Positions 1 to 4,869 of a DNA stretch of 4,869 nucleotides are shown one piece after another. The notes under the pieces were generated by a model. It was not told the origin of the DNA. It saw nothing but the letters and a program-made list of their open reading frames with translations, and did no database searches. The stretch is from a virus. Its lineage: Duplodnaviria > Heunggongvirae > Uroviricota > Caudoviricetes. How positions within the stretch are numbered: position 1 is the first letter of the stretch; each line of letters starts with the position of its first letter. The position numbers were made by a program, and so were the translations under genes. The DNA lies in the IMG/VR virus record IMGVR_UViG_3300018486_000082, one strand, 5' to 3'.

Positions 1-1
1 C

Positions 2-1429
2 CGGGCAGATGATCTGGTGCGCAATAACGGAATAGCGGCTAATGCGGTGGCCCTGCATAAGGATCACATTGTCGGGCATATGTTTCTGATCAGCTACCGT
101 CCGAACTGGCGCTGGCTGGGGATGCGGGAGACCGCAGCAAAAAGCTTTGTCGATGAGGTGGAGGCGGCCTGGTCGGAATACGCAGAAGGGATGTCTGGCG
201 AGATCGACGTGGAAGGAAAACGCACATTTACGGAGTTTATCCGTGAAGGTGTTGGCGTTCATGCGTTTAACGGCGAAATCTTTGTGCAGCCGGTCTGGGA
301 TACGGAAACCACGCAGTTATTCCGTACGCGTTTTAAAGCTGTGAGTCCGAAACGGGTGGACACGCCTGGACACGGTATGGGGAACCGTTTTCTGCGGGCC
401 GGTGTGGAGGTCGATCGATATGGCCGTGCCGTCGCGTACCATATCTGTGAGGATGATTTTCCGTTCTCTGGGAGTGGACGATGGGAACGGATCCCGCGTG
501 AACTTCCCACCGGGCGTCCGGCCATGCTGCATATTTTCGAGCCGGTGGAGGACGGGCAGACCCGTGGGGCCAATCAGTTTTACAGCGTCATGGAACGGCT
601 GAAGATGCTCGATTCCCTGCAGGCAACACAGCTTCAGTCGGCCATAGTGAAGGCGATGTATGCAGCGACGATTGAAAGTGACCTTGATACCGAAAAGGCC
701 TTTGAATATATCGCCGGTGCGCCGCAGGGGCAGAAGGATAATCCGCTTATTAATATTCTGGATAAGTTCTCCACCTGGTATGACACGAATAGCGTGACGC
801 TGGGCGGTGTCAAAATTCCGCACCTTTTCCCTGGTGATGATCTGAAACTACAGACTGCGCAGGATTCAGACAATGGATTTTCTGCGCTTGAACAGGCGCT
901 GCTGCGGTATATCGCCGCCGGTCTTGGCGTTTCCTACGAACAGTTGTCCCGTGATTACTCGAAGGTCAGTTATTCAAGTGCCCGCGCATCCGCCAATGAG
1001 TCGTGGCGCTATTTTATGGGGCGGCGAAAATTTATTGCGGCCCGGCTGGCCACGCAGATGTTTTCCTGCTGGCTGGAAGAGGCACTTCTTCGGGGGATTA
1101 TTCGTCCGCCACGGGCACGTTTTGATTTTTATCAGGCGCGATCAGCCTGGTCACGGGCAGAGTGGATTGGTGCCGGAAGAATGGCCATTGACGGGCTCAA
1201 GGAAGTCCAGGAATCAGTGATGCGCATTGAGGCCGGACTGAGCACGTATGAGAAAGAGCTGGCGCTGATGGGCGAGGATTATCAGGACATTTTCCGCCAG
1301 CAGGTCAGGGAATCTGCAGAGCGGGAAAAAGCCGGACTCTCACGTCCGGTGTGGATAGCGCAGGCGTATCAGCAGCAGATAGCGGAGAGTCGCAGGCCGG
1401 AAGAGGAGACAACACCCCGTGAGACGTAA
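2..1429 (+). CDS. B: Portal protein (lambda gpB-like), 5'-partial; the reading frame is open to the window edge so the true start lies upstream
   Basis: Frame is open from nt 2 (RADDLVRNNG...) with no stop, so the ATG at 17 in the ORF track is probably internal. About 475 codons present, consistent with a portal of roughly 530 aa. Sits immediately upstream of, and overlaps, the head protease gene, as in lambda B-C. Stop TAA at 1427-1429. Assignment rests mainly on synteny and size; I cannot align it to gpB from memory. Confidence 0.78.
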   Translation, partial: RADDLVRNNGIAANAVALHKDHIVGHMFLISYRPNWRWLGMRETAAKSFVDEVEAAWSEYAEGMSGEIDVEGKRTFTEFIREGVGVHAFNGEIFVQPVWDTETTQLFRTRFKAVSPKRVDTPGHGMGNRFLRAGVEVDRYGRAVAYHICEDDFPFSGSGRWERIPRELPTGRPAMLHIFEPVEDGQTRGANQFYSVMERLKMLDSLQATQLQSAIVKAMYAATIESDLDTEKAFEYIAGAPQGQKDNPLINILDKFSTWYDTNSVTLGGVKIPHLFPGDDLKLQTAQDSDNGFSALEQALLRYIAAGLGVSYEQLSRDYSKVSYSSARASANESWRYFMGRRKFIAARLATQMFSCWLEEALLRGIIRPPRARFDFYQARSAWSRAEWIGAGRMAIDGLKEVQESVMRIEAGLSTYEKELALMGEDYQDIFRQQVRESAEREKAGLSRPVWIAQAYQQQIAESRRPEEETTPRET

Positions 1430-2924
1430 TCTTTCACACATTATTGCCGCAGCATTCAATGAACCGCTGCTTCTGGAGCCCGCCTATGCGCGGGTTTTCT
1501 TTTGCGCGCTCGGGCGCGAGATGGGGGCAGCAAGTCTTTCGGTACCACAACAGCAGGTACAGCTTGATGCTCCCGGAATGCTGGCTGAAACGGACGAGTA
1601 CATGGCCGGAGGTAAACGACCGGCCCGTGTTTACCGGGTGGTGAACGGTATTGCGGTACTGCCGGTGACCGGCACGCTGGTGCACCGGCTGGGGGGGATG
1701 CGGCCATTTTCCGGAATGACTGGCTATGACGGCATTGTCGCCTGTCTTCAGCAGGCAATGGCAGATAGCCAGGTGCGGGGCATACTGCTGGACATTGACA
1801 GTCCGGGCGGGCAGGCCGCCGGCGCGTTTGACTGCGCTGACATGATTTACCGCCTCCGTCAGCAGAAGCCGGTCTGGGCACTGTGCAATGACACGGCCTG
1901 TTCTGCAGCCATGCTGCTGGCGTCGGCCTGCTCCCGACGGCTGGTTACCCAGACATCCCGTATCGGCTCCATTGGCGTGATGATGAGCCATGTCAGCTAT
2001 GCCGGTCATCTGGCGCAGGCCGGTGTGGATATCACGCTGATTTACTCAGGGACGCACAAGGTGGATGGCAATCAGTTTGAAGCCTTACCGGCAGAGGTTC
2101 GCCAGGACATGCAGCAGCGCATTGATGCGGCGCGCCGGATGTTTGCCGAAAAAGTGGCGATGTTTACCGGTCTGTCTGTTGATGCCGTCACGGGAACAGA
2201 GGCCGCCGTTTTTGAAGGTCAGTCCGGCATTGATGCCGGGCTGGCGGATGAATTAGTCAATGCGTCGGATGCCATCAGTGTGATGGCCACGGCGCTGAAC
2301 AGTAATGTCAGAGGAGGCACTATGCCGCAATTAACTGCAACGGAAGCCGCCGCGCAGGAGAACCAGCGAGTGATGGGGATCCTGACATGCCAGGAAGCGA
2401 AAGGACGTGAACAGCTTGCCACGATGCTGGCAGGACAACAGGGCATGAGCGTTGCACAGGCCCGGGCGATTCTGGCCGCGGCGGCACCGCAGCAGCCGGT
2501 GGCATCCACGCAGAGTGAAGCCGATCGCATTATGGCGTGTGAAGAAGCGAACGGTCGTGAACAACTGGCGGCAACGCTGGCGGCGATGCCGGAGATGACG
2601 GTGGAAAAAGCCCGCCCGATCCTGGCTGCTTCACCGCAGGCGGATGCCGGACCCTCACTCCGTGATCAGATCATGGCACTGGATGAGGCAAAAGGGGCTG
2701 AGGCGCAGGCTGAACAGCTGGCTGCCTGCCCGGGAATGACTGTGGAGAGCGCCCGGGCTGTGCTGGCTGCGGGATCAGGTAAGGCAGAACCGGTCTCTGC
2801 ATCCACAACCGCCCTGTTTGAACGCATCATGGCGAACCATTCACCGGCAGCGGTACAGGGTGGCGTGCCACAGACGTCAGCAGACGGTGATGCGGACGTG
2901 AAAATGCTCATGGCTATGCCATGA
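1419..2924 (+). CDS. C: Head maturation protease (S49/SppA-ClpP superfamily, lambda gpC-like) fused in frame to a C-terminal scaffold domain
   Basis: GTG start at 1419 preceded by GAGGAG (1403-1408, 10-nt spacer); overlaps the portal stop by 11 nt. N-terminus MRRNLSHIIAAAFNEPLLLEPAYARVFFCAL closely resembles recalled lambda gpC (..NLPHIASMAFNEPLMLEPAYARVFFCAL..). Conserved S49 core: NGIAVLPVTGTL, LLDIDSPGG, GAFDCADMI, KPVWALCNDTACSAAMLLASACSRRLVTQTSRIGSIGVMMSH, LIYSGTHKVDGN, GLADELVN. 501 aa; stop TGA 2922-2924. Confidence 0.9.
   Translation: MRRNLSHIIAAAFNEPLLLEPAYARVFFCALGREMGAASLSVPQQQVQLDAPGMLAETDEYMAGGKRPARVYRVVNGIAVLPVTGTLVHRLGGMRPFSGMTGYDGIVACLQQAMADSQVRGILLDIDSPGGQAAGAFDCADMIYRLRQQKPVWALCNDTACSAAMLLASACSRRLVTQTSRIGSIGVMMSHVSYAGHLAQAGVDITLIYSGTHKVDGNQFEALPAEVRQDMQQRIDAARRMFAEKVAMFTGLSVDAVTGTEAAVFEGQSGIDAGLADELVNASDAISVMATALNSNVRGGTMPQLTATEAAAQENQRVMGILTCQEAKGREQLATMLAGQQGMSVAQARAILAAAAPQQPVASTQSEADRIMACEEANGREQLAATLAAMPEMTVEKARPILAASPQADAGPSLRDQIMALDEAKGAEAQAEQLAACPGMTVESARAVLAAGSGKAEPVSASTTALFERIMANHSPAAVQGGVPQTSADGDADVKMLMAMP
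2322..2924 (+). CDS. nu3: Scaffolding protein (lambda gpNu3-like) from an internal in-frame start within the protease gene
   Basis: ATG at 2322 is in frame with the protease ORF ((2322-1419)/3 = 301) and is preceded by a near-consensus Shine-Dalgarno GAGGAGG (2311-2317) with a 4-nt spacer. Lambda Nu3 is likewise the in-frame C-terminal portion of C. The 200-aa product is Ala/Gln/Glu-rich and carries the RIMGIL..EEA.GREQ..PGMTV..AR.ILAA motif recalled from lambda Nu3. Separate expression is inferred, not shown. Confidence 0.6.
   Translation: MPQLTATEAAAQENQRVMGILTCQEAKGREQLATMLAGQQGMSVAQARAILAAAAPQQPVASTQSEADRIMACEEANGREQLAATLAAMPEMTVEKARPILAASPQADAGPSLRDQIMALDEAKGAEAQAEQLAACPGMTVESARAVLAAGSGKAEPVSASTTALFERIMANHSPAAVQGGVPQTSADGDADVKMLMAMP
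2367..2822 (+). repeat. Three tandem in-frame coding repeats (~47-53 codons each) inside the scaffold domain
   Basis: Protein-level repeats: R1 RVMGILTCQEAKGREQLATMLAGQQGMSVAQARAILAAAAPQQPVASTQSEAD (nt 2367-2525); R2 RIMACEEANGREQLAATLAAMPEMTVEKARPILAASPQADAGPSLRD (2526-2666); R3 QIMALDEAKGAEAQAEQLAACPGMTVESARAVLAAGSGKAEPVSASTTALFE (2667-2822); a fourth partial unit begins RIMANH at 2823. Shared motif I-M/L-x-x-x-E-A-x-G-x-E-Q-L-A...P-x-M-T/S-V-E-x-A-R-x-I/V-L-A-A. Nucleotide similarity between units is only moderate, so the duplication looks old. Confidence 0.7.
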
Positions 2925-2960
2925 AGTCAGTGCTGACCATCAACAGGAGGTTTTTACAAT

Positions 2961-3308
2961 ATGGTAACGAAAACCATCACTGAACAGCGTGCGGAAGTAC
3001 GTATTTTTGCCGGTAATGATCCGGCTCATACCGCCACAGGCAGCAGCGGGATTTCCTCGGCAACACCGGCACTGACGCCCCTGATGCTGGATGAAGCTAC
3101 CGGGAAACTGGTGGTCTGGGACGGACAGAAAGCCGGTAGTGCGGTTGGCATACTGGTACTGCCGCTTGAAGGCACAGAGACGGTACTGACGTATTACAAG
3201 TCGGGGACCTTTGCGACGGAGGCAATCCGCTGGCCTGAAAGTGTGGATGAACACAAAAAGGCAAATGCCTTTGCCGGCAGTGCCCTGAGTCACGCGGCGC
3301 TGCCGTAA
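2961..3308 (+). CDS. D: Head decoration protein (lambda gpD-like capsid stabilisation protein)
   Basis: ATG 2961 preceded by AGGAGG (2944-2949). 115 aa versus roughly 110 aa for lambda gpD. Motifs match recalled gpD: DPAHTAT, TPLMLD, KLVVWDG, AVGIL, YKSGTF, WPE, AFAG. Lies between the protease/scaffold and major capsid genes as in lambda. Stop TAA 3306-3308. Confidence 0.9.
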   Translation: MVTKTITEQRAEVRIFAGNDPAHTATGSSGISSATPALTPLMLDEATGKLVVWDGQKAGSAVGILVLPLEGTETVLTYYKSGTFATEAIRWPESVDEHKKANAFAGSALSHAALP

Positions 3309-3315
3309 CACGTTA

Positions 3316-3337
3316 TCAGGCCACCGCGGTGGCCTGA
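3316..3337. promoter_or_regulatory. Perfect 22-bp palindrome / GC-rich hairpin in the D-E intergenic region
   Basis: TCAGGCCACCGCGGTGGCCTGA is its own reverse complement (9-bp stem, 4-nt loop as RNA). Starts 8 nt after the D stop and ends 28 nt before the E start. Followed only by a short TTT, so not a canonical strong intrinsic terminator. Function unknown. Confidence 0.35.
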
Positions 3338-3365
3338 CTGATTTCTGAATGAAAGGAACTGATTT

Positions 3366-4394
3366 ATGGGATTGTTTACGACCCGCCAGTTACTCGGTTA
3401 TACCGAACAAAAAGTTAAATTTCGTGCGCTGTTTCTGGAGCTGTTTTTCCGCCGTACGGTGAATTTCCATACCGAAGAGGTGATGCTGGACAAAATTACC
3501 GGAAAAACGCCGGTGGCGGCCTATGTCTCCCCGGTTGTTGAAGGAAAAGTGCTGCGTCATCGTGGTGGTGAAACCCGCGTGTTACGTCCGGGCTACGTCA
3601 AGCCGAAACACGAATTTAATTACCAGCAGGCGGTTGAGCGCCTTCCTGGTGAAGATCCGGCTCAACTGAACGATCCGGCTTACCGCCGTCTGCGTATCAT
3701 TACCGATAACCTCAAACAGGAAGAGCACGCGATTGTCCAGGTGGAAGAAATACAGGCGGTAAATGCTGTGTTGTATGGCAAATATACGATGGAAGGAGAC
3801 CAGTTCGAGAAAATTGAGGTCGATTTTGGCAGGTCGACGAAGAATAACATCACTCAGGGTAGTGGTAAGGAGTGGTCAAAACAGGATCGTGACACGTTCG
3901 ATCCTACACATGATCTTGACCTCTACTGCGACCAGGCCAGCGGTCTTGTGAATATTGCCATTATGGACGGTACCGTCTGGCGTCTTCTGAATGGTTTTAA
4001 GCTGTTCCGCGAAAAACTGGATACCCGTCGCGGTTCAAATTCTCAACTCGAAACGGCAGTGAAAGATCTGGGCGCAGTGGTGTCCTTCAAGGGGTATTAC
4101 GGCGATCTGGCCATTGTGGTGGCGAAAACGTCTTATATAGCAGAAGACGGTATCGAAAAACGTTATCTGCCGGAGGGCATGCTGGTTCTGGGGAATACTG
4201 CTGCAGATGGGATCCGTTGTTACGGTGCCATTCAGGATGCGCAGGCGTTGTCCGAAGGTGTGGTGGCTTCTTCCCGTTACCCGAAACACTGGCTGACCGT
4301 GGGCGATCCGGCCCGTGAATTTACCATGACGCAGTCCGCACCGCTGATGGTGCTGCCGGATCCGGATGAGTTTGTGGTGGTGCAGGTGAAATAA
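3366..4394 (+). CDS. E: Major capsid protein (lambda gpE-like)
   Basis: ATG 3366 preceded by AAAGGA (3351-3356). 342 aa versus roughly 341 aa for lambda gpE. Extensive matches to recalled gpE: TT.QLL, YVSP, PGYVKPKHE, DPAYRR.RII, QVEE.QAV.AVL.GKYTM, NNITQ, EWSK, EKLDTRRGSNS.LETAVKDLG, GDPAREFTM.QSAPLM, DPDEFV.VQ. Stop TAA 4392-4394. Confidence 0.93.
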   Translation: MGLFTTRQLLGYTEQKVKFRALFLELFFRRTVNFHTEEVMLDKITGKTPVAAYVSPVVEGKVLRHRGGETRVLRPGYVKPKHEFNYQQAVERLPGEDPAQLNDPAYRRLRIITDNLKQEEHAIVQVEEIQAVNAVLYGKYTMEGDQFEKIEVDFGRSTKNNITQGSGKEWSKQDRDTFDPTHDLDLYCDQASGLVNIAIMDGTVWRLLNGFKLFREKLDTRRGSNSQLETAVKDLGAVVSFKGYYGDLAIVVAKTSYIAEDGIEKRYLPEGMLVLGNTAADGIRCYGAIQDAQALSEGVVASSRYPKHWLTVGDPAREFTMTQSAPLMVLPDPDEFVVVQVK

Positions 4395-4402
4395 TCCGTG
4401 AG

Positions 4403-4431
4403 CGGGGGCGAAATGCCCCCGTGTCTTTTTT
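4403..4431 (+). terminator. Candidate Rho-independent (probably partial) terminator just after the major capsid gene
   Basis: Stem CGGGGGC (4403-4409), loop GAAAT (4410-4414), stem GCCCCCG (4415-4421); then TGTC and a TTTTTT run (4426-4431). The 7-bp all-GC stem plus T6 is terminator-like, but the 4-nt gap before the T-run is non-ideal. The next gene's SD lies immediately downstream, so read-through must occur if that gene is expressed from the same transcript. Confidence 0.5.
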
Positions 4432-4445
4432 CACAGGGGGCTGAT

Positions 4446-4829
4446 ATGGCAACAAAAGAAGAAAATCAGAAACGTCTTCGTCAACTGGCTGGCCTGCTGG
4501 GGCGCGAGGCGGATATGTCGGGGAGTGCTGCGGATATTGCGCAACGTGTGTCTGAGTGGGAAGAGGAGCTTGCTGCTTCCCGGGAGGGCATTATGCCTGG
4601 TGATGAGAGCGGGCCTGAGCAAAATCACACAGACGATGGTGAGCAGTTGCACAACACTGATGCTACGGATGATGTTAAAGCGGTCCGTGTGCGGAAATGC
4701 CTGCATGTGATGGGGTATTGCCCGGAGACAGGCCGTCCCGTTGAACTGACGTACCGGGGCATGCGTGTTCTGGTGCCGTCACCACTGGCGACAGCCATGA
4801 TACAGCACGGAACGGCTGAGCATGCGTGA
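4446..4829 (+). CDS. FI: DNA-packaging / head-completion protein, lambda gpFI-like (tentative)
   Basis: ATG 4446 preceded by AGGGGG (4435-4440, 5-nt spacer); 127 aa versus roughly 132 aa for lambda gpFI. Position directly after the major capsid gene matches lambda E-FI. Charged helical N-terminus (KEENQKRLRQLAGLL...AQRVSEWEEELAA), acidic linker and a small C-terminal domain resemble gpFI architecture as I recall it. The ORF track's upstream GTG at 4398 would translate through the terminator hairpin and lacks an SD, so I prefer 4446. Stop TGA 4827-4829. Confidence 0.55.
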   Translation: MATKEENQKRLRQLAGLLGREADMSGSAADIAQRVSEWEEELAASREGIMPGDESGPEQNHTDDGEQLHNTDATDDVKAVRVRKCLHVMGYCPETGRPVELTYRGMRVLVPSPLATAMIQHGTAEHA

Positions 4830-4841
4830 TTTTCAGAATGC

Positions 4842-4869
4842 AGATCGGAAGAGCGTCGTGTAGGGAAAG
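4842..4869. other. Illumina TruSeq adapter sequence (library artefact) at the 3' end of the window
   Basis: AGATCGGAAGAGCGTCGTGTAGGGAAAG is an exact 28/28 match to the start of the standard adapter read-through sequence AGATCGGAAGAGCGTCGTGTAGGGAAAGAGTGT (reverse complement of the TruSeq universal adapter 3' end). Not biological sequence. Confidence 0.85.

Follow-up and report, generated by a model that had tools for sequence, protein, structure and literature searches.

A stretch of 4,869 nucleotides (nt) of tailed-phage DNA (Caudoviricetes; IMG/VR record IMGVR_UViG_3300018486_000082), referred to here in its full length as the window, carries a set of phage head genes. One of them, gene 5, encodes a head maturation protease fused to a scaffold domain. 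Inside gene 5 a Shine-Dalgarno (SD) sequence, GAGGAGG, stands just before an ATG at position 2322, and this pair very probably marks the point where translation of a nested in-frame scaffolding gene begins (gene 6, a homologue of Nu3 of phage lambda). The pair is an initiation signal: it is in frame with gene 5, it is the strongest in the window, it lies in an unstructured and AT-richer patch, it is conserved among homologues, and it is found within a lambda-type head operon. By analogy with lambda, a 200-amino-acid protein would be made from it, would outnumber the protease-scaffold fusion and would act as the scaffold.

The site reads AAT GTC AGA GGA GGC ACT ATG CCG CAA TTA ACT GCA in the window, and the four bases CACT separate GAGGAGG (2311-2317) from the ATG (2322-2324). 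The ATG shares the frame of the 501-codon open reading frame (ORF) of gene 5, as (2322 - 1419) mod 3 = 0, and it encodes Met302, 9-12 residues past the end of the S49 peptidase fold (residue 290-293). Matches that define the fold are to Pfam Peptidase_S49 (PF01343; 4.8e-35, residues 146-293), to the SppA structures 3rst and 4kwb (about 1e-15, residues 77-290) and to TIGR00706 (residues 78-291). Because the S49 match ends at 290-293, the methionine is residue 302 and three repeats of ~45 amino acids follow downstream, the SD-ATG pair is situated at the protease/scaffold boundary. A preliminary description of this DNA, made from the sequence alone, had pointed to a strong ribosome-binding site with an in-frame ATG within the protease gene, and had placed it at the junction of the protease core and a repeat-containing scaffold domain. 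Both the frame and the position are as it described.

The predicted pairing of the site with the 16S rRNA tail has a duplex energy of -12.0 kcal/mol, which is the best among the 282 ATG, GTG and TTG codons of the plus strand and exceeds that of all accepted gene starts in the window. The remaining 26 internal methionine codons of gene 5 have anti-SD energies of +0.7 to -7.8. The expected number of the exact 14-mer GAGGAGGNNNNATG, counted over both strands, is 0.02 per window; 4 of 200 shuffled sequences contained it once. AGGAGG is found at only two places in the window on either strand, the second copy being the ribosome-binding site of the decoration gene. The region of 25 nt on either side of 2322 displays the lowest predicted structure of 482 such windows along gene 5 (minimum free energy -6.6, compared with a mean of -14.4 and a standard deviation of 4.0) and is third lowest in G + C content.

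Several observations weigh against a nested start. The shorter pattern GGAGGNNNNATG (GGAGGN4ATG) is not rare, with 0.23 occurrences expected per window from dinucleotide shuffles. When the peptide R-G-G-T-M is held fixed and synonymous codons are resampled, -12.0 is reached in 3.9% of trials (p = 0.039). The low-structure rank varies with window size: it is 1 of 482 with 25 nt on either side, 38 with 30 nt and 51 with 20 nt. The 4-nt spacer from GGAGG to the ATG is near the lower limit of what functions in E. coli; this short spacing (4-5 nt from GGAG(G) to ATG) is nevertheless kept among homologues in the codon alignment. In addition, the SD at the protease start is equally strong in several homologues (-11.7 to -12.3). 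A design with a weak upstream and a strong internal signal is therefore not general, SD strengths alone do not establish an excess of scaffold over protease, and the argument on stoichiometry is one from lambda biochemistry. As the single-sequence null models are only weakly significant by themselves, the comparative evidence is taken as decisive.

Homologues of the protease-scaffold gene were collected at 145 loci from phage records, species-representative genomes and IMG/VR, and 25 representatives with 49-96% amino-acid identity were placed in a codon alignment. In pairwise alignments of 120 distinct proteins, the residue aligned to Met302 is in nearly all cases encoded by an ATG with an SD of -9.3 to -12.0; the six that seem to depart from this each retain an in-frame ATG at the boundary, with an SD of -5.8 to -10.3. 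The ATG is present in all 25 representatives. In 24 of them it falls in one shared column; in a Providencia locus (L010) it is found two codons further upstream. In 24 of the 25, codon -3 is GGA and the codon that follows begins with G (GGN, GTN or GAA), which yields a conserved geometry of GGAG(G), 4-5 nt and ATG. The residues that flank GGA-G vary (R, T, K, S, L, Y, I or P before; T, N, D, R, S, Q or V after). Of the 145 loci, 134 contain the pattern GGAGN5ATG, usually as the sole match in the locus; except in L010, its position is the homologous one. Most loci that do not display it (L053-L055, L058-L064) end before the site, and L065, with 26% identity, was left out. Judged from these alignments, the SD-ATG module is under purifying selection at the nucleotide level across the homologues. 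The preliminary description had proposed that conservation of the pair be checked in homologous prophages, and the pair is conserved in every homologue examined. Its argument that an SD of this strength within a coding region is unlikely to be accidental is likewise upheld, both by the best anti-SD pairing on the plus strand and by the conserved GGA-G and ATG.

The conservation might in principle be that of a peptide. The SD-like string would then be a by-product of a Gly-Gly hinge or cleavage site followed by a conserved methionine, with no internal initiation. G299, G300 and M302 are indeed invariant among phage 21, lambda, Gifsy-1 and phi80, and the resampling with R-G-G-T-M fixed gives an SD of -9 or stronger in 35% of trials, besides the few that attain -12. 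The codons, however, do not behave as those of a conserved peptide. The first glycine is GGA in all 24 homologues that have it; at 16 invariant glycine columns elsewhere in the same genes GGA accounts for 47 of 400 codons (11.75%), and third positions there are near saturation (~1.7 bits). In five lineages the second glycine is replaced by valine or glutamic acid, with the codon still beginning with G and GGAG retained, which indicates selection on the RNA and not on the peptide. The Providencia locus has no Gly-Gly, yet it carries AAGAGGA together with its ATG two codons away. Also arguing against a purely protein-level origin are the AT-rich codons after the ATG and the position of the site in the least structured region of the gene. 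A hinge or cleavage site as the sole cause is thus very unlikely.

It is still less probable that the internal SD acts on elongating ribosomes, as a signal for pausing, drop-off or co-translational folding, and not on initiation. Its location 9-12 residues beyond the end of a folded domain would suit such a function, and SD-like sequences within genes have been proposed as pause sites. An elongation signal has no need for an ATG at a fixed distance of 4-5 nt, yet the ATG is kept in 25 of 25 representatives. The pause signal attributed to SD sequences is, moreover, among the artefacts of earlier ribosome-profiling protocols. Revised bacterial profiling methods are reported to remove artefacts of those protocols (PMC6377232). 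From lambda genetics, Nu3 has an essential function of its own (PMC3224144, PMC10695390), which also argues against this reading.

Phage 21 provides the closest known counterpart of the nested gene ('Bacteriophage 21 head gene operon', M81255.1; complete genome, OL657228.1). Its gene 5 has 98.3% nucleotide identity with that of the window, no base differs between -30 and +20 of the internal ATG, and the genes follow in the same order: portal, protease/scaffold, decoration, major capsid and FI. There are 25 base changes in gene 5, only one of which is within 2250-2420, and the window represents a prophage or short-read contig copy and not the type phage. Both phage 21 records annotate a ribosome-binding site at the equivalent of window 2311-2315 or 2312-2316. 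In M81255.1, a GenBank entry of 1993, it corresponds to 2311-2315, and the record has a coding sequence termed 'gene 6' from 2322 and three 'Tri boxes'. In OL657228.1, of the 2021 era, the nested coding sequence is a 'scaffolding protein' similar to lambda Nu3; the labels of the nested sequence in the phage 21 records are 'head-tail preconnector gp6' and 'scaffolding protein'. As the ribosome-binding site, nested coding sequence and Tri boxes are already annotated there, the nested scaffold start is known and its detection in the window is a rediscovery of an annotated feature. It carries little weight as a discovery, since lambda Nu3 and its nested phage 21 counterpart are both textbook examples.

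The lambda C protein is a homologous S49 protease with a C-terminal scaffold domain and 53% amino-acid identity overall. An in-frame methionine, Met309, falls in the same alignment column as Met302 and is preceded by CAGGAGGG (-10.8); the relation of the window genes to lambda C/Nu3 is therefore one of homology. In lambda C, too, the long form begins at a GTG, and the synteny is that of the window. The scaffold portions differ in that lambda has one Tri-type repeat and 131 amino acids from the conserved methionine, compared with three repeats and 200 amino acids in the window. According to PMC8508860, which cites Shaw and Murialdo (1980), one lambda gene yields both protease and scaffold. The scaffolding protein Nu3 is essential, and C, B and E are its interaction partners (PMC3224144, PMC10695390). 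Gifsy-1 (STM2605) displays GGTM with ACAGGAGGCACTATG in the same column and has three repeats, and phi80 gene 5 displays GGTM with CTTGGAGGAACTATG and has one repeat; unlike phage 21, the Gifsy-1 and phi80 records leave the nested gene unannotated. Phage 21, lambda, Gifsy-1 and phi80, together with 20 further lineages, all have the internal start at the same column of the alignment.

The lambda comparison raises the question of which codon is the start. In the RefSeq lambda record NC_001416.1 (L003), nu3 is annotated at 5132-5737; its start at 5132 (position 2333 of the locus) is Met239 of C and gives 201 amino acids. The conserved start, Met309, is at 5342 (position 2543 of the locus). The RefSeq nu3 start is probably wrong, as the codon is without an SD, lies inside the S49 fold and corresponds to isoleucine in phage 21 and phi80, and as the PHROG 8399 profile has 131 positions, the length of the lambda product from Met309. 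The preliminary description had stated that the window reproduces the C/Nu3 arrangement. This is correct in the sense of homology relative to lambda 5342, but not relative to the RefSeq coordinate 5132. A related proposal, that the scaffold begins at another in-frame codon of the window, either the equivalent of the RefSeq nu3 start or Met319 (ATG 2373), can draw on the RefSeq annotation itself and on a moderate SD before ATG 2373 (-7.4), but is extremely unlikely. Lambda Met239 has an anti-SD energy of only -2.7, and its position within the fold is taken by isoleucine in phi80 and the window, neither of which has any start codon at that point. Met319 has a much weaker SD than ATG 2322 and is explained at the protein level as part of the repeat motif (R-V/I-M-G-I-L).

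Other protease/scaffold pairs with a common C-terminus are those of phage Mu (I/Z), herpesvirus (UL26/UL26.5) and phage P2 (gpO). They share a logic by which a minority protease-scaffold fusion enters the procapsid by way of the C-terminal domain of the free scaffold. The protease families of the Mu, herpesvirus and P2 pairs are unrelated to, or distant from, that of gene 5; UL26.5 is derived from its own transcript, and P2 gpO has no separate nested product. The UL26/UL26.5 and P2 systems are also mentioned in PMC2949831 and PMC8508860.

With the nested start at ATG 2322, one late mRNA would give rise to two proteins with a common C-terminus. Initiation at GTG 1419, a start that overlaps the stop of the portal gene, would produce the 501-amino-acid protease-scaffold fusion, and ribosomes binding de novo at the internal SD would produce the 200-amino-acid scaffold alone. 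The shared helical C-terminal domain with its three Tri repeats may co-assemble with the major capsid protein and the portal, as lambda suggests. In this way a few protease domains would enter a procapsid assembled largely around free scaffold; degradation of that scaffold by the protease would follow. In lambda, Nu3 is known to be required for procapsid assembly and to be removed by the protease (PMC3224144, PMC10695390). SD strength, low local structure and lambda biology together would be consistent with an excess of the short product. A more elaborate proposal is that the SD-ATG geometry is tuned to set a scaffold:protease ratio, and perhaps also causes elongating gene 5 ribosomes to pause or to compete with initiating ones, and that, separately, the number of Tri repeats determines scaffold-capsid valency. 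The geometry (GGAG(G), short spacer, ATG, AT-rich codons) is invariant across all lineages, whatever the strength of the upstream protease start; both ideas are considered unlikely.

The product predicted from ATG 2322 has 200 amino acids, a mass of ~20.5 kDa and an isoelectric point of 4.6, and begins with MPQLTATEAAAQ. Public databases already contain this exact 200-amino-acid sequence as a protein, on 15 contigs. The C-terminal part of gene 5 matches phrog_8399 'head scaffolding protein' (1.2e-34) in three stretches and phrog_8940 (1.5e-30); NCBIfam has no model that covers the scaffold part. Coordinates of the nested gene, its repeats and the surrounding features are collected in Table 1.

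Table 1. Features of gene 5 and of the nested gene 6 (window coordinates)
Feature	Position	Strand	Basis and remarks
Internal Shine-Dalgarno sequence GAGGAGG	2311-2317	+	Codons AGA GGA GGC (Arg-Gly-Gly); ribosome-binding site in M81255.1 and OL657228.1
Gene 6, putative nested in-frame scaffolding protein (Nu3 homologue)	2322-2924	+	ORF; phage 21 annotations; phrog_8399
Tri1 box, first of three diverged protein-level repeats	2389-2492	+	M81255.1 repeat_region (offset 582); repeat alignment
Tri2 box	2529-2639	+	M81255.1 annotation; repeat alignment
Tri3 box, counterpart of the single lambda Nu3/phi80 repeat	2670-2783	+	M81255.1 annotation; alignments
Gene 5, S49/SppA-family head maturation protease fused to scaffold domain	1419-2924	+	ORF; Pfam; phage 21 records
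S49 protease core, residues ~77-293 of gene 5	1647-2297	+	Pfam, PDB SppA and TIGR00706 matches
Shine-Dalgarno-like GAGGAGA, gene 5 start	1403-1409	+	9-10 nt before GTG; duplex -9.1; M81255.1 ribosome-binding site = 1404-1409

The Tri repeats have 37-56% identity with the lambda Nu3 segment. They are seen at the protein level only, as Tandem Repeats Finder detected no DNA-level tandem repeats in 2200-2960. One copy is present in lambda and phi80 and three in the window and Gifsy-1. Natural variants occur: a locus with a clean Tri1/Tri2 fusion retains two copies and has a 150-amino-acid product (L128), and another has a 19-amino-acid deletion in Tri2 (L115). A single-sequence AlphaFold model of the 200-amino-acid product is of low confidence (predicted local distance difference test 64, predicted template modelling score 0.30); in it, every Tri repeat is predicted to form a long helix joined by a loop to a short one.

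The full gene 5 product has 501 amino acids (~52.3 kDa) and matches phrog_53 'head maturation protease' (1.5e-150). By their Pfam matches, the five ORFs of the window belong, in order, to PF05136, PF01343, PF02924, PF03864 and PF14000. The gene order is of the lambda type, with lambda-family portal, S49 peptidase/scaffold, decoration protein D, major capsid protein E and packaging protein FI. The beginning of gene 5, with its GTG start, and the end of the portal gene have 11 nt in common (1419-1429; GTGAGACGTAA), the portal stop being at 1427-1429. The overlap suggests that translation of the protease-scaffold fusion is coupled to that of the portal.

Two further readings of the region were tried and rejected. 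An SD-stimulated programmed frameshift finds neither a slippery heptamer nor an alternative-frame ORF after the SD. In OL657228.1, binding sites for 'transcription factor CII' are assigned by the pattern TTGYN6TTGY to the minus strand, at the equivalent of window 2327-2340 and 2561-2574; the count of this pattern does not rise above chance level, with 2 found and 0.88 expected, and with two or more in 41 of 200 shuffles. The first of these sites (2327-2340) is lost in relatives by a change of CAA to GAA.

The practical value of the site lies in annotation: GGA-G, 4-5 nt and ATG at the end of the S49 fold constitute a simple rule for locating the nested gene in lambdoid prophages. The head module (window 1-4841) matches 2038 of 5426 complete E. 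coli genomes, at a median of 2 places per genome. RefSeq E. coli records among the matches listed carry 'S49 family peptidase' only and omit the nested scaffold gene.

The last 28 bases of the window (4842-4869) are the Illumina TruSeq adapter AGATCGGAAGAGCGTCGTGTAGGGAAAG, and 4841 is the last position homologous to phage 21 and to E. coli genomes; the end of the contig is therefore a sequencing or assembly artefact. Among the loci collected from genome contigs, C genes identical to that of lambda were found in assemblies labelled Kitasatospora, Shewanella, Pseudomonas, Oceanobacillus, an Akkermansia metagenome-assembled genome, Enterococcus and others (L014, L016-L018, L020-L024, L039, L041, L042, L047-L052, L056). 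Where the contig name states coverage, it is ~1x or less. These look like contamination of the assemblies by lambda DNA and not like real prophages.

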